This document shows, piece after piece, positions 1 through 33,009 of a stretch of 37,247 bases of DNA. This stretch comes from a virus. The stretch's first letter is position 1; each line of letters opens with the position of its first letter. The DNA lies in IMG/VR virus record IMGVR_UViG_3300045988_069188; one strand, given 5' to 3'. The notes beneath the pieces were generated by a model. The model searched no databases and was not told the DNA's origin. It saw only the letters and a list, made by a program, of their open reading frames with translations. Both the position numbers and the translations under genes were made by a program.

Positions 1-55
1 TGTTTCCGTAGAGGAAGCAGCAAAGGCTGGTAAGTTCTAAAAAAGCTAGTATTTA
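1..55. repeat. Terminal direct repeat, copy 1 (identical to 37193-37247)
   Basis: tgtttccgtagaggaagcagcaaaggctggtaagttctaaaaaagctagtattta occurs at both window ends, read directly from the sequence. Confidence 0.97.
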
Positions 56-97
56 TGCGGTCCCTGGTTCTGCTAGAATGTGCCAAAATTAGTGCGT

Positions 98-140
98 AAG
101 ACACAAATAAGACACAGGTAGAACACAGTCGTAGAACACA
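98..140 (+). repeat. Four direct TA(A/G)(G/A)ACACA repeats; putative integrase arm-type binding sites (one arm of attP)
   Basis: taagacaca at 98 and 108; tagaacaca at 119 and 132. All have the same orientation with 10-13 nt spacing, and lie next to the int 3' end. Confidence 0.55.
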
Positions 141-148
141 AATAATTG

Positions 149-179
149 CCCCGGGAGATTATATGTTCCCGGGGTTTTT
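149..179. terminator. Rho-independent terminator, probably bidirectional (ends the late/lysis transcript on + and int on -)
   Basis: 8-bp GC stem ccccggga (149-156) / tcccgggg (167-174), 10-nt loop, TTTTT at 175-179. The minus-strand side is followed by an A/T-rich stretch. It sits 5 nt beyond the int stop. Confidence 0.75.
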
Positions 180-183
180 GCTA

Positions 184-1242
184 TTATTGTATCAGTTCTA
201 TTTCCTCTTTTAATTGATCTAAAGTTCTGTGTGTATAAACTTTTTCTGTCACATCCTCGATAGAATGACCAACTATCAGCTTTATGATGTACTCATCCAT
301 GCCAGCATCTTTTGCCAATGTAATAAATGTATGTCTTGTATCGTGAGGGCGGTGGGAGAGTTTTAATTTTTCCATGACCTTATTCCAACGGCTTCTGTAT
401 TTGTCGTATGTCATGCACATACCAGACTGACTATCCGGATCATTGAATAAATAATCGGATTCCAATTCTTTAGCCTGATCTACTCGTTTTATGATCAGAT
501 CTCTTATTTTTGAATGAATAGGAACGCACCTGTTGCGCCCTGCATCAGTCTTAAGACCACCGAACATGGTATTATTTTTCAGGTCAATATCAGCTATTTT
601 CAAGATAGACAGTTCTTGTGGTCGCCATCCGCTGTATATACCAATTAGAATCATATCAACAACACCATAGTTTATGTTCTCCCAGAGTAGATCTATTTCC
701 TCTGGTGTAAATGGAACACGGATGATCTGAGGCTTTCCACGCTTGATGGAATCACACATCTGGGCATAGTTCTTATCAACAATTTCCAGCTTCATAGCAT
801 ATTTATAGAGCATGTTATAGAGAGATTTCATTCTTTGCTTCGTACTCTGACCGACATCTGCATCACGGATTGTTCCTTCCAAGTGATTTGATCGGATATC
901 TTTCATTCGCATGTCCCAGAGTGGCTTTGAATGATTGTAAGCAGATACCCATGTTCTTGCGGCAGATGGTACAATTTCCTGAAAATGTATATCTGACCAT
1001 TTTTTATATACTTCTGCAAATGTAATTGTATTGGTTTCTATATCGTATGGATTTTGATTGTAAGCAGACAGAGCAGCAAGAGCATCTTTTCTGGTAGGGT
1101 AGTAGCCGAGGGTGGAAAATAGCTGTTTAGCTTTTCCTGTTTGCTCGTCTACGGACCATCCTTTTGTAACTCTTACTCTCCATGGATTTCTACGTTTTCC
1201 TGACAATTTGGCAATACCGCCGTAGCCATTTGGTAGTTTCAT
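184..1242 (-). CDS. int: Tyrosine recombinase / phage integrase (353 aa from the ATG at 1242)
   Basis: C-terminal catalytic signature HDTRHTFITL...LIVGHS...VYTH. N-terminal KLPNGYGGI...RRNPWRVRV resembles the AP2-like arm-binding domain. GGAGGG RBS lies 8 nt upstream of the ATG at 1242. The 30 extra N-terminal codons in the ORF track lack an RBS. Confidence 0.95.
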   Translation of the reverse strand: MKLPNGYGGIAKLSGKRRNPWRVRVTKGWSVDEQTGKAKQLFSTLGYYPTRKDALAALSAYNQNPYDIETNTITFAEVYKKWSDIHFQEIVPSAARTWVSAYNHSKPLWDMRMKDIRSNHLEGTIRDADVGQSTKQRMKSLYNMLYKYAMKLEIVDKNYAQMCDSIKRGKPQIIRVPFTPEEIDLLWENINYGVVDMILIGIYSGWRPQELSILKIADIDLKNNTMFGGLKTDAGRNRCVPIHSKIRDLIIKRVDQAKELESDYLFNDPDSQSGMCMTYDKYRSRWNKVMEKLKLSHRPHDTRHTFITLAKDAGMDEYIIKLIVGHSIEDVTEKVYTHRTLDQLKEEIELIQ

Positions 1243-1356
1243 ATTATCCCTCCAAGTAAAAAGGGTATAAAAATACCCCTGTAAAAAATGGAAGGCTTGT
1301 GATATAATGTAGTTTGCTGATACGTTATTCATAAGCCTTCGGTTTGTGGGTAACTT

Positions 1357-1390
1357 CCCTCAGATGTTGGTAGCATCTGGGGGATTTTTT
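1357..1390 (+). terminator. Terminator-like hairpin oriented on the + strand inside the minus-strand lysogeny operon
   Basis: 10-bp stem ccctcagatg (1357-1366) / catctggggg (1374-1383, one G-U pair), 7-nt loop, TTTTTT at 1385-1390 on the + strand only. Confidence 0.4.
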
Positions 1391-1407
1391 ATAATATGAA
1401 GATGATA

Positions 1408-2976
1408 TTATTCATCCTCATCATCTGTCTCATTCTCTGTTGAATATTCAGAGGTATATGCTTCAGAACTTGACAGTGACTGTCTGTATTCTTCAGCAAG
1501 CATTGTTCTGTTGAACTCTGCAGTAGGGCAGATCTCATTTACAAGTTCTTCAAGTTCATCTATTGATACATTAAAGAACTCTTTTCTAAGATTTACCTTG
1601 TTTACTCTGCGATCATTAAGTCTCTTGTGAAGTTCGGTTTCAAGACCGGAAGCGTCATCAGAGAAAATAAAGCTGTGTACATCAAATTTGAACGGAACAG
1701 AAGCATCTCCAAGTTCATTAACTCTATCCTGTGGATTTATTCTTCTTGTCATTCCCACTTTGAATACATTCTCACCAAATGAACCCAAGTTGCTGATAAT
1801 ATAAACATTACCAGCTTTACCATTTTGCAACTTTGCTATTTCATCCTTTTTGATTGTTACATCTGCAAGCTGAGCCTGCAGTTCAAGGATACGAGCTTGC
1901 AGAGCAGCAAGGGCTTCACCCTCTGAAGCTTCCGCCTGTTCTTTGAGGGAAGATATCTGATTCTCATATTTTGACTCTTCAAGCTCCACTTTTTTACGTT
2001 CGGCCTCAAGGGCCTTGCGCTCCTCTGCCTCCTGATGCATCTGCTCTTTGATTGCAAGCTGTTCTTGCTTTGCCTGTTCTTTCTTGACGTAGTAGTTATA
2101 CTCTATCTTTGCAGCATTAATGAAAAGATATTCCATTTCACCTATGAACTTAGTAAGAGTTCCAGCAATTGTTTGATTACCTTCAGCTGCAATCTTTAGA
2201 TACTTAGCACAGATATCTTTTATTTGTTCAATACCGTTGTCAAGCTTGTCATATTTTAAATTGTACAAGACGTTCTGCATCTCAGATTCCAGCCCCTTGA
2301 CAATGAGGTCGTAAATCGTTTTGTTGGCTTTAGTAGTGTATCTGATAGCATATTGCTGTCTGAGAGTGTCAATGGATTTCTCATTTTCTCTGTATGCTTT
2401 TCGCAAGCTTTTTATATCCATACAATGTAATTTAAGGATAACAGATGGGGCAATGAGATTAGCATCCTCAATATCTGATTGGCTAATTCGACATTCGTTA
2501 TATGGAATGTCAGCAGTAATGAAGTTATCTAATGCATATTCAATACTGCTGTAGATCTCCTTAGCACGAGAGATCTTTCGCTCCTGGGTCGCTACTGATT
2601 TTTGCAGTTTATCATCTTTTGCCTGAAGTGTAGCAATGTCTGAACGCAATTTATCTATAGTGGCAAGGTTTTCGGATATTTCGGCATTCACCTGGTTAAG
2701 CTTAGCCATCGACTGCTGATGGTCATGCACCCCTAAATTCTGCATAGTCTTATTCATGTCTTGCATTGCTTGATTCATCTGAGCATTCTGGGCCGCAAGT
2801 TGGGCATTCTGTTGACTAATTTGTTGATTGGTATCTTTTTGTTTCTTTTCGTCCAAGGCCTTCATTATCATCAATACTATGCCGCCGATTGCTGGAAGTA
2901 TAAGAAACCAGCATGCGCATAGAATAGCAATAAACCATGTACTTAAATACCATTTGTTTTCTTGTTTTTGATTCAT
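1408..2976 (-). CDS. Membrane-anchored coiled-coil protein with DUF4041-like middle region and C-terminal T5orf172 (GIY-YIG superfamily, MUG113-like) domain
   Basis: 522 aa. Hydrophobic helix at aa 12-38 (STWFIAILCACWFLILPAIGGIVLMIM), then a Q/N-rich segment and long heptad-like regions. Aa 389-482 read GNVYIISNLGSFGENVFKVGMTRRINPQDRVNELG...PFKF...ELH..L...R...EFF, typical of T5orf172. GGGAGAG RBS; starts 24 nt after the upstream gene stop. Confidence 0.8.
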   Translation of the reverse strand: MNQKQENKWYLSTWFIAILCACWFLILPAIGGIVLMIMKALDEKKQKDTNQQISQQNAQLAAQNAQMNQAMQDMNKTMQNLGVHDHQQSMAKLNQVNAEISENLATIDKLRSDIATLQAKDDKLQKSVATQERKISRAKEIYSSIEYALDNFITADIPYNECRISQSDIEDANLIAPSVILKLHCMDIKSLRKAYRENEKSIDTLRQQYAIRYTTKANKTIYDLIVKGLESEMQNVLYNLKYDKLDNGIEQIKDICAKYLKIAAEGNQTIAGTLTKFIGEMEYLFINAAKIEYNYYVKKEQAKQEQLAIKEQMHQEAEERKALEAERKKVELEESKYENQISSLKEQAEASEGEALAALQARILELQAQLADVTIKKDEIAKLQNGKAGNVYIISNLGSFGENVFKVGMTRRINPQDRVNELGDASVPFKFDVHSFIFSDDASGLETELHKRLNDRRVNKVNLRKEFFNVSIDELEELVNEICPTAEFNRTMLAEEYRQSLSSSEAYTSEYSTENETDDEDE

Positions 2977-3000
2977 TGAATCTCTCCCTTCATTTGTTAA

Positions 3001-3231
3001 TTATTTTTGCAACCCATGTGCATAAGCCTCAATGGTATCTACAGAGCTAGTGTGTTTATCGAAGTCTGCTCTGATGATATGGTTGAGTGCATGGATATAA
3101 GCATCGTTAAGCTGCTCCTGTGTGAATCGTGTATTAAGAAAGATAGTATATGAACCATCTTCATTGCAGGTAACAGTTTCTTTAACTTTTGTAGTCTTCA
3201 GATCCATCATCTGTACATTTATATCATACAA
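3001..3231 (-). CDS. Small ImmA/IrrE-like protein with a degenerate zincin motif (HALNH instead of HExxH)
   Basis: 76 aa, immediately downstream of the XRE repressor as in immR-immA operons. DGSYTIFLNTRFTQEQLNDAYIHALNHIIRADFDK matches the short ImmA-like layout, but the catalytic Glu position is Ala. Confidence 0.5.
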   Translation of the reverse strand: MYDINVQMMDLKTTKVKETVTCNEDGSYTIFLNTRFTQEQLNDAYIHALNHIIRADFDKHTSSVDTIEAYAHGLQK

Positions 3232-3301
3232 TTAACTCATCCCCCTTGTAACATAGTCGTAGATACAATAACAAATACCGTGGGATGTTTTTTGTACATT
3301 A

Positions 3302-3685
3302 TTATCGTTTCTCTTTATTCTTGAGAGCCATGAGCATTGTGTGAACTGTCTCCAAGTCCTCTGGCTCTGCGTCCCTTGCGGCATCGAAGAGAAGAGAGAG
3401 TTGCTTGTTTTCAAAGATCTCCTGTGCCTTTTTAGCTGTTTCATCGTCGAAGTAATATGCAGGTTTTGGTTGATCTTCCATATCAAATCCCATTAACCAC
3501 ATTGCATTTACTTGTAGAACCTGAGCAAGTTTTGGAGCTGATATATTAGATGGCTTATGGCTACCATTTACATATTGACTTATTGATGCTTTACTTACAC
3601 CACTTTTGTCTGCAAGTTCCTGCGCATTTATATTTATGTTATTCATTGCTTGTTTTAATCGATTAGCAGTTACTGGCCATTTCAT
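3302..3685 (-). CDS. XRE-family HTH repressor (CI/ImmR-like); no S24 peptidase domain
   Basis: 127 aa. N-terminal HTH_3 pattern LKQAMNNININAQELADKSGVSKASISQYVNGSHKPS...LAQVLQVNAMWLMG. AAAGGAGGA RBS. Divergent from the Cro-like gene. Confidence 0.92.
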   Translation of the reverse strand: MKWPVTANRLKQAMNNININAQELADKSGVSKASISQYVNGSHKPSNISAPKLAQVLQVNAMWLMGFDMEDQPKPAYYFDDETAKKAQEIFENKQLSLLFDAARDAEPEDLETVHTMLMALKNKEKR

Positions 3686-3717
3686 ATATTGTATCCTCCT
3701 TTTATTAGTATAATAGG

Positions 3718-3746
3718 ATTATACAACATCGTTTAACTAAAATCAA
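3718..3746 (-). promoter_or_regulatory. Putative repressor (lysogeny) promoter
   Basis: On the minus strand: TTGATT (3746-3741), 17-nt spacer, TATAAT (3723-3718). The spacer contains the operator half-site tagttaaac. Confidence 0.6.
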
Positions 3747-3837
3747 ACAAAAAGTTAAAAAACTTTAAACTTTAGGCTTGACTTTTTAGTTAAACGGAGT
3801 TAAACTTACACTAAAGTTAAATGAAGTTTAACAAATA
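3731..3837. promoter_or_regulatory. Cluster of GTTAAAC/GTTTAAC operator-like motifs in the genetic switch region
   Basis: gtttaacta at 3731-3739; GTTAAA-n4-TTTAAAC at 3754-3770; agttaaacggagttaaac at 3788-3806; palindromic agttaaatgaagtttaacaaata at 3815-3837. Confidence 0.65.
3778..3806 (+). promoter_or_regulatory. Putative early lytic (rightward) promoter
   Basis: TTGACT (3778-3783), 17-nt spacer, TAAACT (3801-3806). It overlaps the agttaaacggagttaaac operator-like repeat. Confidence 0.5.
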
Positions 3838-3858
3838 TACGAGATGGGAGGTGCGAAT

Positions 3859-4065
3859 ATGCCATATCAGTATGATAAGCTGAGAGGAAGAATAGTAGAA
3901 CGCTATGGAACACAGGGTAATTTTGCAAATGCATTAGGTTTATCAAGTAATTCTGTATCAAAAAAGTTAAATTGTAAAACTGGATTCACTCAGGAAGAGA
4001 TGAATAAGTGGGCTGAATTACTCGATATTAACTTAAATGAGTATCCTGATTATTTTTTTGCCTAA
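3859..4065 (+). CDS. Cro-like small HTH regulator (DUF739-like)
   Basis: 68 aa from the ATG at 3859, with GGGAGGTG RBS 5 nt upstream. YDKLRGRIVERYGTQGNFANALGLSSNSVSKKLNCKTGFTQEEMNKWAELL resembles the Cro/DUF739 family of Firmicutes phages. Divergent from the repressor. Confidence 0.8.
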   Translation: MPYQYDKLRGRIVERYGTQGNFANALGLSSNSVSKKLNCKTGFTQEEMNKWAELLDINLNEYPDYFFA

Positions 4066-4067
4066 AA

Positions 4068-4090
4068 AGTTAAACGGTGTTTAACAAATA
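4068..4090. promoter_or_regulatory. Distal operator-like palindrome (20/23 identical to 3815-3837)
   Basis: agttaaacggtgtttaacaaata contains the perfect inverted repeat GTTAAAC-ggt-GTTTAAC. It lies between the Cro-like gene and the next gene. Confidence 0.55.
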
Positions 4091-4121
4091 AGGATAGAAA
4101 GAATGGATAGAAAGGAGAGGC

Positions 4122-4430
4122 ATGAGCAAGCTAGGTGATGCGATAAAAGAAAGTTATGACAGAAAACGGCTGTATGAAGTCTGGGGTGGGATAAAGCAAA
4201 GGTGCTATAACCCAAACAACAAGGACTATCAATATTATGGCAAACGAGGAATCCGGATGTGTAAAGAATGGAAAGATGATTTTGATTCATTCTTTGAGTA
4301 TGTGTCTAAGCTTTCAAATTTTGGAAAAGATGGATACACGATAGACCGCAAGGATAATAACGGAGACTATGGGCCTGGAAATATTCGATGGGCTAGCGTT
4401 GAACAGCAGAACAATAACAGGCGGATTTAA
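4122..4430 (+). CDS. Conserved phage protein of unknown function (HNH/AP2-like DNA-binding family)
   Basis: 102 aa. RLYEVWGGIKQRCYNPNNKDYQYYGKRGIRMCKEWKDDF...YTIDRKDNNGDYGPGNIRWASVEQQNNNRR is a motif pattern common in Firmicutes phage early regions. AAAGGAGAGG RBS. Confidence 0.6.
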   Translation: MSKLGDAIKESYDRKRLYEVWGGIKQRCYNPNNKDYQYYGKRGIRMCKEWKDDFDSFFEYVSKLSNFGKDGYTIDRKDNNGDYGPGNIRWASVEQQNNNRRI

Positions 4431-4443
4431 AGAAAGGAGAGAC

Positions 4444-6858: not shown

Positions 6859-7850
6859 TGGCAGTTAATAATAGTTTAGTGAAAAAAAACAAGGCACAGC
6901 AGAATTTGGGAATCACAGCATACCTTACACAGGATGCTATAAAAAATCAGATTAATCAGGTAGTTGGTGGTAAGAATGGACAGCGTTTCATTTCTGCAAT
7001 CGTATCAGCATATAACACCAACCCTACACTTCAGGAGTGCACAAATCAGTCGATTCTTTCAGCAGCACTTCTTGGTGAGAGTTTACAGCTTTCACCATCT
7101 CCACAGCTCGGACACTATTACATTGTTCCGTTCAATAACACCAAGGCAGGCACGAAGGAGGCACAGTTCCAGATGGGATACAAGGGATATATCCAGCTTG
7201 CGATCCGATCCGGTCAGTATAAGAGATTGAACGTAGTAGCCATCAAAGAAGGTGAGCTGGAATACTTTGACCCACTCAATGAGGACATCAAAGTCAATCT
7301 CATGGTTGATGACTGGGACAAGCGTGAAGAAGCTGAGACAATCGGCTACTATGCCATGTTTGAGCTGACAAATGGATTCAGAAAAACATTGTATTGGAGC
7401 AAGGCACAGATGCTTGCTCATGCGGACAAGTATTCACAGGCTTTCAGCAAGGATGCTGTAAAGATTAACACAAAGTATGGCGAGAAAGAAAAGGTGTCAT
7501 TTGCTGACTATGAAGCCGGTAATTATGATCCGAGAGATTCATGGATGTATTCATCATTCTGGTACAAGAATTTTGATGGCATGGCTTACAAGACCATGCT
7601 CCGTCAGTTAATTTCCAAGTGGGGTGTTATGAGTATCGATCTTCAGAGCGCATTTGAGCGTGATATGACCACTATGGATGGAGATGGAAATGTGACCTAT
7701 GTGGAAAATGATACAGAGGAATATGTTGATTCCACTGCATCAGAACCGGAAGCAAAACCGGAACCGGAACAGGGCAAGGAAAAAGCACCTGTTATTGAAC
7801 AGTCGCAGACTACACAGCAGAATCCTGCCGCCGCTGCACTGTTTTCATAA
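6858..7850 (+). CDS. recT: RecT-family single-strand annealing protein
   Basis: 330 aa. RFISAIVSAYNTNPTLQECTNQSILSAALLGESLQLSPSPQLGHYYIVPF...QFQMGYKGYIQLAIRSGQY is the classic RecT core. Confidence 0.92.
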   Translation: MAVNNSLVKKNKAQQNLGITAYLTQDAIKNQINQVVGGKNGQRFISAIVSAYNTNPTLQECTNQSILSAALLGESLQLSPSPQLGHYYIVPFNNTKAGTKEAQFQMGYKGYIQLAIRSGQYKRLNVVAIKEGELEYFDPLNEDIKVNLMVDDWDKREEAETIGYYAMFELTNGFRKTLYWSKAQMLAHADKYSQAFSKDAVKINTKYGEKEKVSFADYEAGNYDPRDSWMYSSFWYKNFDGMAYKTMLRQLISKWGVMSIDLQSAFERDMTTMDGDGNVTYVENDTEEYVDSTASEPEAKPEPEQGKEKAPVIEQSQTTQQNPAAAALFS

Positions 7851-7949
7851 ATAATACTTGTTCATGGCAGATACACACATCACACAGTATAAGCCATTGT
7901 ATATAGCCCTGCCGCTGATCCGGTGGCAGGGAGAAAGGAGCATTGATTG

Positions 7950-8360
7950 ATGAATCCACAGTGGATAAAGAGCGCATCGTTGAATAGCAGAAAGTACAGG
8001 AATAAAAAGGTTGAGGTCGATGGGATTCTATTTGATTCCAAGAAAGAAGCAAACCGGTACATGGAGCTTAAGCTGTTAGAAAAGGCAGGAGAGATCACAG
8101 ACCTCAAGAGACAGGTCAGATACGAGCTTATACCGAGGCAGAGAGAACAATCGACTGAGATGTACAAGGCTGGACCTCATAAGGGCGAATATAAGCCCGG
8201 TAAGGTCATAGAACAGAGCTGCTACTATGTTGCTGATTTTGTCTACAAAGAGGGTGAGAATATAGTCGTGGAAGACACCAAGGGCATGAGAACAAAAGAC
8301 TATGTGATCAAGCGGAAATTGATGCTCCACCGTTATGGAATACGAATAAAGGAGGTATAG
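7950..8360 (+). CDS. DUF1064-family protein (restriction-endonuclease-like fold; putative junction resolvase)
   Basis: KYRNKKVEVDGILFDSKKEANRYMELKLLEKAGEITDLKRQVRYEL...VADFVY.....VVEDTKG..T.DY.IKRKLM matches the DUF1064 pattern. AAAGGAG RBS. Confidence 0.75.
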   Translation: MNPQWIKSASLNSRKYRNKKVEVDGILFDSKKEANRYMELKLLEKAGEITDLKRQVRYELIPRQREQSTEMYKAGPHKGEYKPGKVIEQSCYYVADFVYKEGENIVVEDTKGMRTKDYVIKRKLMLHRYGIRIKEV

Positions 8361-11511: not shown

Positions 11512-12780
11512 ATGAATGAAGAAAAAGATGATTTGATCCTTCGTGTATTTGGCGAGGATGGAGAACTGGACATTGATAAGCCAGATGAGGGGCTTGCTGA
11601 GTACAAGCAGCGAAAGAAAGAAGCGAGAGATCGCATGATTGCGCTGCAGAGACAACCGTATGAGGTCAAAGTTGCACGATCAAAATTAAGAGCCTATGAG
11701 TTCATAGAGCAGATGGACAAGCGAGATAAAAATGCTCATGTGAGTGTGGGTGGACTTGATAGTATCACACTACACGTATTCCTGAAGTCGATAGGAATCA
11801 ATGTTCCAGCGGTATCGGTATCATCTCTGGAAGATAAGAGCATACAGAGGGTACACAAAGCTCTTGGAGTAACGATTTTGAAGCCGCTTAAGACAAAAGT
11901 AGAAGTGCTCAATGAAGTTGGATTCCCGGTTATCAGTAAGAGAATAGCTGGCAAGATTGCCCTACTTCAGAACCCTACAGAGAACAATAAGACAGTCAGA
12001 CATGCAATAATCACAGGTGAATGCGGAGAGCTTGGACACTTCCAGAAAAACAGTCGCATGAAGCTTCCACAGAAGTGGCTTAATCTGTTTGGCGGATATG
12101 AGAACGAGAATGAAGGGGTTATGTATTACAAACCGAATTTCAAGGTATCAAATGATTGTTGCTATTATTTGAAAGAAAAGCCATGTGACGACTGGGCAAG
12201 AGAACATTCAAGTTATCCGTTTCTTGGCATGATGGCATCCGAAGGTGGTCAGAGAGAAGAAGCTCTCACAGATCATGGGTGCAATTACTATGGCAAGACA
12301 GTAATGAGATCAGCACCATTTGCACCATACCTCAGATATGACATTTTAAGACTTGCGCAGGAGATGGATGCCTGGTATCACGATCACACAGATGTGTTTG
12401 CAAAGCTTTATTATGAGCAGCCATACAGCAAGGACAAGGATGGAAATGTAATACCGTATGAACCGGTTGATACGATCATACCGGCTATATATGGTCAGAT
12501 TGTGAATGATAACGGAGAACTTAGGACAACAGGAGCACAGAGAACCGGATGCAGTATGTGTGGTTTTGGAATCCACATGGAAGAACGACCGCACAGGTTT
12601 GACAGGCTCAGAGAACGGAACCCAAAGGAATGGGAGTTTTACATGTACCGGTGCTGCACGGATCCGAAGACTGGTGAGAAGTTCGGTTGGGGAAGAGTGT
12701 TAGATTACATAGGTGTCGCATGGGAAGATGAACCAGCGGTACAGATGAATATTTATGATTACCCGGAGGTGCAGCCATGA
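11512..12780 (+). CDS. PAPS-reductase-family (PP-loop ATPase, DndC/IbrA/BrxP-like) protein
   Basis: 422 aa. AHVSVGGLDSITLHVFL is a PP-loop SGGxDS-like motif. C-terminal Cys cluster RTGCSMCGFG. The stop overlaps the methyltransferase start (ATGA). No canonical SD precedes the ATG. Confidence 0.7.
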   Translation: MNEEKDDLILRVFGEDGELDIDKPDEGLAEYKQRKKEARDRMIALQRQPYEVKVARSKLRAYEFIEQMDKRDKNAHVSVGGLDSITLHVFLKSIGINVPAVSVSSLEDKSIQRVHKALGVTILKPLKTKVEVLNEVGFPVISKRIAGKIALLQNPTENNKTVRHAIITGECGELGHFQKNSRMKLPQKWLNLFGGYENENEGVMYYKPNFKVSNDCCYYLKEKPCDDWAREHSSYPFLGMMASEGGQREEALTDHGCNYYGKTVMRSAPFAPYLRYDILRLAQEMDAWYHDHTDVFAKLYYEQPYSKDKDGNVIPYEPVDTIIPAIYGQIVNDNGELRTTGAQRTGCSMCGFGIHMEERPHRFDRLRERNPKEWEFYMYRCCTDPKTGEKFGWGRVLDYIGVAWEDEPAVQMNIYDYPEVQP

Positions 12781-30657: not shown

Positions 30658-33009
30658 TTGGAAGTATTTAAGATACTGGGACGAATCGCAGTATCAAATG
30701 AAGATGCGAATGAGAAAATTGAAGAGACTGGCGACAAGGCAGAGAAGACAACCAAAAAGATGAGTTCTGTGTTTGGCAATATCGGCAAGTTTGCGCTCAA
30801 GGCAGCAAAGGTCGCCGTGGTTGCAACAACGGCTGTGGCCACTGGAATAGCTGGCATTACTGCTAAGGCTGTAAGCGAGTATGCAGACTATGAGCAGCTT
30901 GTCGGTGGTGTCGAGACACTGTTCAAGGACAGTTCAGATAAGGTTGTTGAGTATGCAAATAATGCATATAAGACGGCGGGGCTGTCGGCGAACGAGTACA
31001 TGGACACTGTAACAAGCTTTTCAGCGTCGCTGCTCCAGGGATTGGGCGGTGACACGGAAAAGGCGGCTGAAACTGCAAATCTGGCCATAACAGACATGTC
31101 GGATAATGCAAACAAGATGGGTACTGATATGGCATCTATACAGAATGCATATCAGGGTTTTGCTAAGCAAAACTACACGATGTTAGATAATCTCAAGCTT
31201 GGCTATGGCGGTACTGCATCCGAGATGGCTAGGCTTATCAATGATTCTGGTGTACTCGGTGACACCATGACTGTGACAGCAGATAATGTCAATAGTGTAT
31301 CGTTTGATAAGATGATAGAGGCTATTCATGTTGTACAGACTGATATGGGGATAACAGGCACAACCGCAAAAGAGGCAGCCACTACAATACAGGGATCTAT
31401 CGGCATGATGAAGTCTGCATGGACGAATCTGCTCACAGGAATGGCCGACCCATCACAGGACATGGGAGTGCTGATCAATAACCTTGTTGATTCTGTGATG
31501 GCTGTAGCTGATAACCTTGTACCACGAATAGCAGACACACTGCCAAGGATAGTTACAGGTATATCAAGTCTTGCACAGAAATTGGCACCATATATACCGC
31601 CACTTATAGAACAGATACTGCCATCACTGATACAGGGCGCAACATCGTTGCTGTCCGAATTGGTGAATAACCTTCCTGGCATACTTGAAACCTTGTTGCC
31701 GGGTATAGGTGGAGAACTGGGGCAGACACTTACATCTGCATTACAGTCTATATTCGGAACTTTGCAAGCTATTTTGCCTACTATATTATCCCTTGTTAAT
31801 ACACTGTTACCACCATTATTGCAGATAGTTCAGACGATTTTGCCGCCACTTACGAATGTGATCAATATGCTTTTGCCGCCTATTGTGCAGATAGTGTCGC
31901 AGATTCTTCCTATTTTGATTTCAATTTTGCAGCCGGTATTGGAATTATTGCAGCCAATACTTGATCTGCTCAATCCAATTATAAGTTTAATCTTAATGAT
32001 ATTAGATCCATTGATGGAACTTATCAATATGATCCTGCCTCCGCTTGTTGAGGTGATAAGTTTGATATCAGAAGAGATACTCGGAGTGCTGAAACCGATA
32101 CTTGAATGGTTTTGCGAGATGCTTGAAATCACATTGGGAGCAGCGATTATTGCAATTATGGCAGTTATCAACAACTGTCGTAAATCGTTTTCAATGGCTT
32201 GGAAAGGCATTAAGAAAGTCTGGAATGCAGCACCTGCCTTTTTTAAAGGCATATGGAATGGTATAAAATCAGCATTTGCAGCAGTAGGAAAGTTTTTTAA
32301 AGGCATCTTTACAACAGCGTGGAATGGAATTAAGAGTGTTTGGTCTGCTGTTACTGGTTTCTTCAGCGGAATATGGAACGGCATCAAGGGAATATTCTCA
32401 GCTGTTGGCACATGGTTTAGTGGTATTTTCGGCAAGGCTTGGGCTGGTATCAAGAATGCATTTTCACCGATGGTTAAGTTCTTTTCAGATACATGGCAGA
32501 AGATTAAGGATATCTTTTCCAAGGTTGGAACAGCTATCGCAGATGGCATCAAGGGAGCCGTTACAGCAGCTATCAATGGCATATTAGGTACAGCGACAAA
32601 GATCATTAATGGTTTTATATCTGCAATCAATGCTTGTATATCCGTTATTAATGCGATTCCGGGAGTATCAATTAATAAGCTTGATAAATTGAATGCACCA
32701 CAGCTTGCAGAAGGTGGTGTACTTAAGAAAGGTCAGGTCGGTATACTTGAAGGTAATGGAGCTGAGGCTGTTGTGCCGCTTGAGAAGAATACAGAATGGA
32801 TCAGTAAGGTAGCAGATCAGATGGCAGCAGCAACAGGAAGAACAGTAGACAATGAATCAGAGTTATCAAAGGTTCTGTATTTGATTCTTGATGTGGTAAG
32901 ACATATTGATGAAAATATGTATGAATACATGGTAAGAGCACTTACAGAAGGTACGAAGCTTAAGATTGATGGTAGAGAATTTGGAAGGATGGTGAGAACA
33001 TATGCTTGA
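30658..33009 (+). CDS. Tail tape measure protein
   Basis: 783 aa with a TTG start after AGGAAAGGGGG. N-terminal TMP motifs; a long L/I/P-rich helical region; about six tandem WNGIK..F..V..FF-type repeats at aa ~520-640 (nt ~32200-32580). Confidence 0.92.
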   Translation: MEVFKILGRIAVSNEDANEKIEETGDKAEKTTKKMSSVFGNIGKFALKAAKVAVVATTAVATGIAGITAKAVSEYADYEQLVGGVETLFKDSSDKVVEYANNAYKTAGLSANEYMDTVTSFSASLLQGLGGDTEKAAETANLAITDMSDNANKMGTDMASIQNAYQGFAKQNYTMLDNLKLGYGGTASEMARLINDSGVLGDTMTVTADNVNSVSFDKMIEAIHVVQTDMGITGTTAKEAATTIQGSIGMMKSAWTNLLTGMADPSQDMGVLINNLVDSVMAVADNLVPRIADTLPRIVTGISSLAQKLAPYIPPLIEQILPSLIQGATSLLSELVNNLPGILETLLPGIGGELGQTLTSALQSIFGTLQAILPTILSLVNTLLPPLLQIVQTILPPLTNVINMLLPPIVQIVSQILPILISILQPVLELLQPILDLLNPIISLILMILDPLMELINMILPPLVEVISLISEEILGVLKPILEWFCEMLEITLGAAIIAIMAVINNCRKSFSMAWKGIKKVWNAAPAFFKGIWNGIKSAFAAVGKFFKGIFTTAWNGIKSVWSAVTGFFSGIWNGIKGIFSAVGTWFSGIFGKAWAGIKNAFSPMVKFFSDTWQKIKDIFSKVGTAIADGIKGAVTAAINGILGTATKIINGFISAINACISVINAIPGVSINKLDKLNAPQLAEGGVLKKGQVGILEGNGAEAVVPLEKNTEWISKVADQMAAATGRTVDNESELSKVLYLILDVVRHIDENMYEYMVRALTEGTKLKIDGREFGRMVRTYA

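Follow-up and report, generated by a model that had tools for sequence, protein, structure and literature searches.

We analyzed a viral stretch of DNA of 37,247 nucleotides (nt), the IMG/VR virus record IMGVR_UViG_3300045988_069188, which is called the window throughout, with a focus on a gene for a protein of 522 amino acids (aa) that lies in the lysogeny module. The gene order on the minus strand is an HTH_3 repressor, an open reading frame (ORF) of 76 aa, the 522-aa gene and a tyrosine integrase (Table 1). An earlier annotation made from the letters of the DNA alone (hereafter the sequence-only reading) had proposed a 522-aa ORF on the same strand as the repressor, 24 nt downstream of the stop codon of the small ORF and preceded by its own ribosome-binding site. 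The ORF and its ATG start were confirmed, and both the gap of 24 nt and the GGGAGAG site (2988-2982) can be read directly. Taken as a whole, the window represents a temperate siphovirus genome that is nearly complete and has relatives among Coprococcus/Lachnospiraceae prophages. The 522-aa gene is a recognizable defense gene of an already known kind and not a new system: judged by its sequence, the protein is probably a divergent member of the SNIPE (PD-λ-1) family, and its gene is cargo of the lysogeny module in a temperate siphovirus with a Coprococcus/Lachnospiraceae-type host.

The family assignment is carried by an end-to-end match to the PADLOC profile of PD-Lambda-1 (PDLC03976, E 1.4e-84), in which aa 32-512 align to profile positions 13-481 of 491; a PADLOC search had been suggested by the sequence-only reading and bore out its expectation of a defense gene. 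A second PD-Lambda-1 profile (PDLC03977) is matched at E 3.1e-78 and phrog_1847 at E 3.7e-101. As E. coli SNIPE reference we used the gene annotated ‘PD-lambda-1’ in phage PhiR26_1, the product of which has six of the six residues named in PMC13190303 (E223, N250, W257, I308, T319, and E414). BLASTP against this reference gives 37% identity over 295 aligned columns (window protein aa 211-502, E 3e-48) and places E446 of the window protein opposite the catalytic E414 of SNIPE. The PD-Lambda-1 score is distributed unevenly, with 217 bits for the nuclease part alone, 48 bits for aa 1-385 (E 2e-13) and no match of the PD-Lambda-1 models to aa 131-300 alone. Since the generic Pfam T5orf172 and PADLOC PDC-S57 models reach only about 60 bits on the nuclease domain versus 217 bits on PD-Lambda-1, this domain is specifically of the SNIPE type. 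The PADLOC candidate system PDC-S57 thus has the T5orf172 domain in common with the window protein (E 3.2e-15), but its match is limited to the nuclease domain (aa 388-483, about 55-60 bits). NCBIfam yielded sub-threshold coiled-coil matches only, and searches of the PDB with the nuclease domain by sequence and with the whole model by fold gave nothing significant, so the protein has no solved relative there.

The closest protein cluster contains 268 member sequences, and the name given to the relatives at NCBI is merely ‘GIY-YIG nuclease family protein’. Annotation based on Pfam therefore misses the SNIPE family in Clostridial prophages, while existing defense-finder profiles detect it. Among the relatives we also encountered a predicted protein of 503 aa (P0017) that shares 96% identity with the window protein over 67% of its length and bears Fe-hydrogenase and 4Fe-4S Pfam domains as well; as it originates from a 2.8-kb contig, either a chimera of the assembly or a fusion across a prophage-host junction is conceivable.

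The C-terminal T5orf172/MUG113 block noted in the sequence-only reading is matched by both Pfam families (T5orf172, PF10544, E 4.9e-17, aa 390-483; MUG113, PF13455, E 7.5e-19, aa 405-482), and for an ORF of such length these E-values are far beyond chance. Residues Y392, R411, R412, E446, N459, and N462 are invariant across the clade of the window protein and that of E. coli SNIPE (alignments of 20 and 68 sequences), and by analogy with canonical enzymes we take Y392, R411/R412, E446, and N459/N462 to form the GIY-YIG active site. The Tyr of the second motif (‘YIG’) is replaced by F405, and Phe occupies this position in all 119 members of the clade of the window protein; in the canonical E. 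coli SNIPE clade, 46 of 119 proteins have it as well. Given the latter count, F405 is a tolerated polymorphism within the family, and the possibility that it inactivates the enzyme was rejected on the same ground.

The protein was modeled with AlphaFold2 (mean predicted local distance difference test, pLDDT, of 71.5) and is helical up to aa 384, followed by a small α/β domain. The single N-terminal transmembrane (TM) helix and the Q/N-rich stretch that had been proposed earlier are both present: the 19-residue Kyte-Doolittle average peaks at 2.53 around aa ~12-38, the sole strongly hydrophobic segment, and does not exceed 1.6 at any other place. Two Lys residues precede this anchor and four follow just after it, which fits the N-out/C-in orientation shown for SNIPE (PMC13190303); from these flanking Lys residues only, we infer the same topology for the window protein. 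The approximately 300 aa of heptad-rich sequence, which had been taken for one coiled coil, do not form a single rod in the model, as a compact bundle (aa ~155-267) interrupts the long helices 23-81, 86-154, and 268-350. Downstream of the nuclease, aa 484-522 carry a net charge of -10; over their last 25 aa, proteins of the Clostridial clade have a median net charge of -8 and those of the E. coli SNIPE clade one of 0. The acidic tail proper (aa ~503-522, window 1411-1470) reads SEYSTENETDDEDE; that it acts as an auto-inhibitory DNA mimic is speculation.

TABLE 1. Features of the lysogeny module, parts of the 522-aa protein with the corresponding helices of E. coli SNIPE, and further genes of the window.
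Feature	Window position (nt)	Strand	Window protein (aa)	E. coli SNIPE (aa)	Basis and remarks
Tyrosine integrase	184..1332	-			Pfam Phage_integrase E 4e-15; phrog_1 E 5.3e-56, alignment from aa 46
13-bp hairpin	1356..1384	.			24 nt past the stop codon of the 522-aa gene; T-run on plus strand only
Gene of the probable SNIPE/PD-λ-1-family protein	1408..2976	-	1-522		ORF with ATG start; stop codon 1408-1410
C-terminal extension common to SNIPE (aa 484-~502), then clade-specific acidic tail	1411..1527	-	484-522		BLASTP alignment ends at aa 502
T5orf172/MUG113 (GIY-YIG-type) nuclease domain	1528..1812	-	389-483		Pfam; E446 codon at nt 1639-1641
Linker helices, middle domain to nuclease	1825..2175	-	268-384		Helices 268-350 and 354-384
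Stretch probably equivalent to the DUF4041 core	2140-2310	-	~223 to ~279		Extends 12 residues into the linker part
Middle helical domain ‘type A’	2176..2514	-	155-267		Compact bundle of short helices (AlphaFold2)
Q/N-rich helical stalk	2515..2862	-	39-154		Q+N 19/52 in aa 39-90; helices 23-81 and 86-154
N-terminal hydrophobic segment, predicted single membrane anchor	2863..2943	-	12-38		Kyte-Doolittle; helical in AlphaFold2 model
Bundle helix 1			188-210	143-165	AlphaFold2
Bundle helix 2			216-239	185-212	AlphaFold2
Bundle helix 3			245-265	219-236	AlphaFold2
Linker helix			268-350	246-317	AlphaFold2
Second linker helix			354-384	321-355	AlphaFold2
β elements			short loops	hairpin 173-184, strand 242-244	AlphaFold2
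Shine-Dalgarno-like GGGAGAG	2982..2988	-			5 nt before ATG; direct sequence reading
ORF of mini ImmA/IrrE-like family, 76 aa	3001..3231	-			TTG start; phrog_20886 E 1.8e-21; HALNH motif
cI-type HTH_3 repressor	3302..3685	-			Pfam HTH_3 E 5.4e-11; PHROG transcriptional repressor/regulator families
Promoter-like TTGATT-17-TATAAT upstream of repressor	3718..3746	-			10/12 consensus; consensus match only
ORF of 102 aa	4122-4430	+			HNH endonuclease PHROG, phrog_374 E 6.1e-33; no Pfam match; early region, directly after cro-like gene
PAPS-reductase-like protein	11512-12780	+			phrog_424 E 3.7e-28; 4-nt overlap with methyltransferase
DNA methyltransferase, 532 aa	12777-14375	+			phrog_116 E 2.2e-100

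PD-λ-1 was found in 2022 by a functional screen in E. coli (Vassallo et al., PMC9519451) and was renamed SNIPE when its mechanism was dissected in 2026 (Saxton et al., PMC13190303). The E. coli protein is held in the inner membrane by an N-out, single-pass anchor; its cytoplasmic DUF4041 domain binds DNA and contacts the tape measure proteins of siphoviruses, and its GIY-YIG nuclease, for which E414 is essential, cleaves phage DNA during injection (PMC13190303). This is a direct defense in which the cells survive, and it leaves an induced prophage and plasmid transformation unaffected; removal of the TM helix turns SNIPE into a toxic protein that cleaves host DNA (PMC13190303). The same study describes an N-terminal membrane anchor in about two thirds of the homologues and diversified domains among them, and leaves the auto-inhibition of the E. 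coli protein unexplained (PMC13190303). In 2025, PD-Lambda-1 of Streptococcus thermophilus EU01 was reported to give more than 3-log protection against several siphovirus genera, and when carried on the chromosome it impaired neither growth in LM17 nor milk acidification (PMC12322248). The statement in the sequence-only reading that this architecture had no experimentally defined function thus did not stand, as the family has already been characterized (PMC9519451, PMC12322248, PMC13190303). Its proposal of a single-gene, membrane-tethered nuclease that is carried as prophage cargo and may protect the lysogen is supported by the full-length PD-Lambda-1 match, the 37% identity to SNIPE, and the recurrent genomic slot described below.

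Like the window protein, E. coli SNIPE is the product of one gene and has a single-pass anchor, a helical stalk, a middle helical domain, a long linker helix and a C-terminal GIY-YIG/T5orf172 domain with the same catalytic Glu, and its reference copy is also prophage-borne, being located between ren and rha of PhiR26_1. The window protein differs in its Q/N-rich stalk, its strongly acidic C-terminal tail, and a middle domain that lies below Pfam DUF4041 detection. Its gene is found between the repressor and the integrase, whereas the E. coli copy occupies a lambdoid ren/nin-type position, and the host is a Gram-positive-type relative of Clostridium without outer membrane; the ManYZ entry route is specific to λ. 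The Firmicutes homologues of the Streptococcus prophages EJ-1 (ORF3) and Javan523 share the slot of the window gene but are proteins with a canonical Pfam DUF4041 domain (E 1e-15 to 1e-17) and a Tyr at the second GIY-YIG position, with an overall identity to the window protein of about 28-29%. PD-Lambda-1 of S. thermophilus EU01, likened here by its published description, is a further Firmicutes homologue. Zorya and Kiwa embody the same idea, a defense located at the membrane that meets phage DNA at or around the moment of injection (PMC13190303), but they are multi-gene systems of unrelated proteins and show no sequence relation in PADLOC. Previous work on the SNIPE family comprises studies in E. 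coli and a test in S. thermophilus; the family now extends to prophages of abundant human-gut Clostridia, and the sub-family opens no new mechanism.

The position of the gene is recurrent. The order of repressor, (small ORF), SNIPE homologue and integrase is also found in Javan523 and EJ-1, and the same gene order occurs in gut prophages beside smpB with a tyrosine integrase and beside cotJ with a serine recombinase. At 26 species-level loci, the 120 flanking ORFs of at least 110 aa that lie nearest to the gene include 13 recombinases (eight serine and five tyrosine recombinases), 13 HTH_3, four Peptidase_M78 and two Peptidase_S24 proteins. The homologues thus recur in prophage repressor-recombinase slots, as the sequence-only reading had anticipated. 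A 2.2-kb block (window 1257-3468), which comprises the hairpin and the SNIPE-like gene together with the 76-aa ORF and the C-terminal half of the repressor, has 92% DNA identity to positions 2228-4439 of a Coprococcus contig (L004). Outside the block, the integrases (27% protein identity) and the N-termini of the repressors are unrelated, so the block moves between prophage backbones, and its identity points to a recent exchange as a unit. In one related-prophage variant (L053), an Abi_2 gene (7062-8114) is inserted between the SNIPE-like gene and a serine recombinase, which shows that the slot accumulates defense cargo. Classical prophage superinfection-exclusion genes, such as those for the Ltp-type lipoproteins of streptococcal phages, also lie between integrase and repressor; active in the lysogen, they keep superinfecting phages from introducing their DNA. 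Their products block injection without a nuclease, whereas a conserved catalytic nuclease domain is part of the window protein.

Based on these similarities, we propose a mechanism by homology to E. coli SNIPE. The protein would be produced in the lysogen, probably from the repressor promoter, and its single N-terminal helix would hold it in the cytoplasmic membrane, with the stalk, middle domain and nuclease facing the cytoplasm and the nuclease leaving the chromosome untouched. During injection by a superinfecting siphovirus, the middle domain, as a divergent DUF4041, would engage both the DNA and a component of the injection apparatus, probably the tape measure protein, and the GIY-YIG-type domain with its catalytic Glu (E446) would cut the entering DNA. 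The resident prophage would be spared, since its DNA does not enter through the membrane. The range of targets and a direct rather than abortive mode of defense would likewise follow those of the characterized proteins.

The middle domain is the divergent part of the protein. When aa 125-300 were searched against 1.84 billion cluster representatives, just 182 relatives were returned, which form a separate and mostly Clostridial sub-family that we named ‘type A’ and in which the motif RYTTKANK is invariant. E. coli SNIPE, EJ-1, and Javan523 match Pfam DUF4041 at 1e-15 to 1e-19, and DUF4041 was recorded in none of the 120 closest homologues of the window protein (precomputed Pfam annotation). 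The motif YNYYVKKEQAKQEQ, which had been quoted as DUF4041-like in the sequence-only reading, aligns with the start of the SNIPE linker helix (HEYREQKQKEKEEQ), a position immediately beyond the core of Pfam DUF4041. As the E. coli middle domain binds the tape measure protein, the type A sub-family could help to map how specificity evolves.

Several points weigh against a SNIPE-like protein that senses injection through a DUF4041 domain. Expression in the lysogen is deduced from the gene order and one consensus promoter, experimental support comes from the E. coli and S. thermophilus members and would extend to the Clostridial sub-family by homology, and the association with ManYZ is specific to λ and E. 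coli. The pLDDT values are low in the nuclease domain (46-75). A TM-like N-terminus is found in 37 of 119 close relatives versus 114 of 119 proteins in the E. coli clade, so a TM anchor is not a general feature of the Clostridial clade; the shorter forms without a TM helix (P0034, P0044, P0078, P0109, P0117, and others) begin with MGLLDIL or MSLKDIF. For the middle domain, the match to Pfam DUF4041 (PF13250) that had been expected earlier is missing from the 522-aa protein even at E<=10, hidden Markov model (HMM) cross-searches between both middle-domain types were negative even with filters off, the middle region alone reaches only P 0.004-0.016 in profile-profile comparison, and the model of the window protein is devoid of the small β-hairpin and strand of the SNIPE model. 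Since the middle domain of the E. coli protein binds DNA and the tape measure protein, the trigger could differ here. These observations on the middle domain, the fact that the type A and canonical DUF4041 (type B) HMMs never match the same protein among the collected homologues (300 versus 130 matches, zero overlap), and the diversified domains described in PMC13190303 would suit a protein in which the same effector is coupled to a different sensor, the middle domain being a replacement module with another trigger, for example the Gram-positive injection channel or envelope perturbation. We consider such a replacement improbable, as four independent routes (BLASTP, MAFFT, hhalign, and sub-threshold Pfam) agree on one register in which D223 of the window protein corresponds to R197 of SNIPE and to position 1 of the Pfam model; the type A relative P0319 has a sub-threshold Pfam DUF4041 match (E 0.012) in the identical register. 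With narrow profiles of the two clades (effective number of sequences, Neff, about 2), hhalign aligned the linker helix alone (aa 289-377 of the window protein versus SNIPE 256-344, probability 96.6%). Full alignment of the N-terminal parts required widened, more diverse profiles, which are collinear over aa 105-381 of the window protein and SNIPE 78-348 (probability 99.3%, E 3e-20). The AlphaFold2 model of E. coli SNIPE (pLDDT 78.6) shares with that of the window protein the order of TM helix, long helix, loop, three helices, a helix of 70-80 residues, a further helix and an α/β domain, with corresponding helix lengths (Table 1), and both models have the same best BFVD match, a siphovirus protein of 372 aa (about 380-400 columns). 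Since the independent alignment methods agree on the register, we favor divergent homology over replacement and lean toward a middle domain that is a divergent DUF4041 without the small β-hairpin, as far as alignments and models can tell. Rather unlikely, in our view, is a functionally distinct SNIPE variant in which the remodeled middle domain reads the injection machinery of Gram-positive siphoviruses differently, the acidic tail auto-inhibits the nuclease as a DNA mimic and so protects the chromosome, and the relatives without TM helix reach the membrane by other means.

An abortive-infection toxin, of which the nuclease would be released or activated against the host chromosome so that the infected cell dies and the population is protected, seems very improbable. 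The toxicity and host DNA cleavage of E. coli SNIPE without its TM helix, the Abi_2 gene adjoining the homologue in L053 and the lack of a TM helix in most close relatives would be in keeping with such a role, but the E. coli protein defends directly with survival of the cells, the S. thermophilus protein leaves growth in LM17 and milk acidification unimpaired, and the window protein retains its anchor. A phage function of the gene other than defense is highly improbable, whether its product were a DNA-binding regulator of the T5orf172/Bro type, an endonuclease of the homing type or a ‘chromosome segregation ATPase’ akin to SMC proteins. T5orf172 domains do occur in BRO-type proteins, relatives are annotated as ‘chromosome segregation ATPase’ or ‘helicase’, and PADLOC reports a weak JetC match (E 0.003); however, searches of Pfam and NCBIfam revealed neither an ATPase nor a helicase domain, the JetC match covers the helical region only and is far weaker than that to PD-Lambda-1, the full-length match is to a functionally validated family, and the gene is located in the lysogeny module with the repressor and not among replication or packaging genes. 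We therefore rejected the JetC/SMC-like matches and the ‘chromosome segregation ATPase’ names as composition effects of the helical region, since the ATPase domain is absent. The SNIPE-type nuclease that acts on entering DNA thus remains the reading that we prefer.

The repressor is probably the first gene of the lysogeny transcript, and a divergent cro-like DUF739 gene begins at 3844. No terminator-like site was found on the minus strand from the promoter-like site to the stop codon of the 522-aa gene. Since the hairpin behind this gene has no U-tract on the minus strand, read-through into the integrase gene may occur, and because the T-run is on the plus strand only, a terminator formed by the hairpin would be oriented against the lysogeny genes. 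The hairpin may serve to stop antisense or read-in transcription; alternatively, it may be the one-sided remnant of a bidirectional terminator. The integrase likely starts at the Met at nt 1242.

The sequence-only reading had described the module as an immR-immA-int type operon. The order of repressor and integrase was confirmed, but the ‘ImmA-like’ label of the 76-aa ORF is based on its position and a degenerate HALNH motif, in which the catalytic Glu of HExxH is lost, and no Peptidase_M78/ImmA (PF06114) match was found in Pfam, NCBIfam, or PADLOC. Family members are present at loci L004 (2474-2689), L006 (5769-5975), L012 (2108-2293), L014 (5711-5854), and L049 (4770-4976), and at L049-L055 the homologue is present but was not called as a gene. 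In several loci the family lies directly upstream of the SNIPE-like gene; homologues in this position elsewhere have HEMLH, HEMKH, or HELEH, the Javan523 counterpart has HELGH, and the Glu is also lost in the members at L004 (HACRH) and L012 (HALMH). From its sequence, the 76-aa ORF seems to encode an ImmA/IrrE-like domain in miniature, either in decay or recruited to a new role. An obligatory partnership with the SNIPE-like protein is unsupported, as the ORF is absent beside E. coli SNIPE and is replaced in the P0077 loci by an unrelated protein of 156 aa.

The window further encodes RecE/RecT-like recombination proteins, a DnaD-like loader, a DNA methyltransferase, the large terminase, the portal, major head and major tail proteins, a tape measure protein of 783 aa (30658-33009), Dit, and an endolysin; no tRNA genes were found in it. 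The nearest genome match is a contig of an uncultured Coprococcus sp. (98% protein identity), with further relatives from Lachnospiraceae, Roseburia, Ruminococcus, and Clostridium. When 25 kb of the window were compared by megablast with 50,697 phage records, no match was returned, so the element itself is not a deposited phage. The lowest G+C of the window (0.33) is found at 24001-25700 within the structural module, and an ORF of 135 aa on the opposite strand (25229-25636), without a PHROG match, may be a moron or a spurious ORF. The 102-aa ORF behind the cro-like gene falls in an HNH endonuclease PHROG, and the PAPS-reductase-like protein and the overlapping methyltransferase may form a DNA-modification or anti-restriction pair (Table 1).

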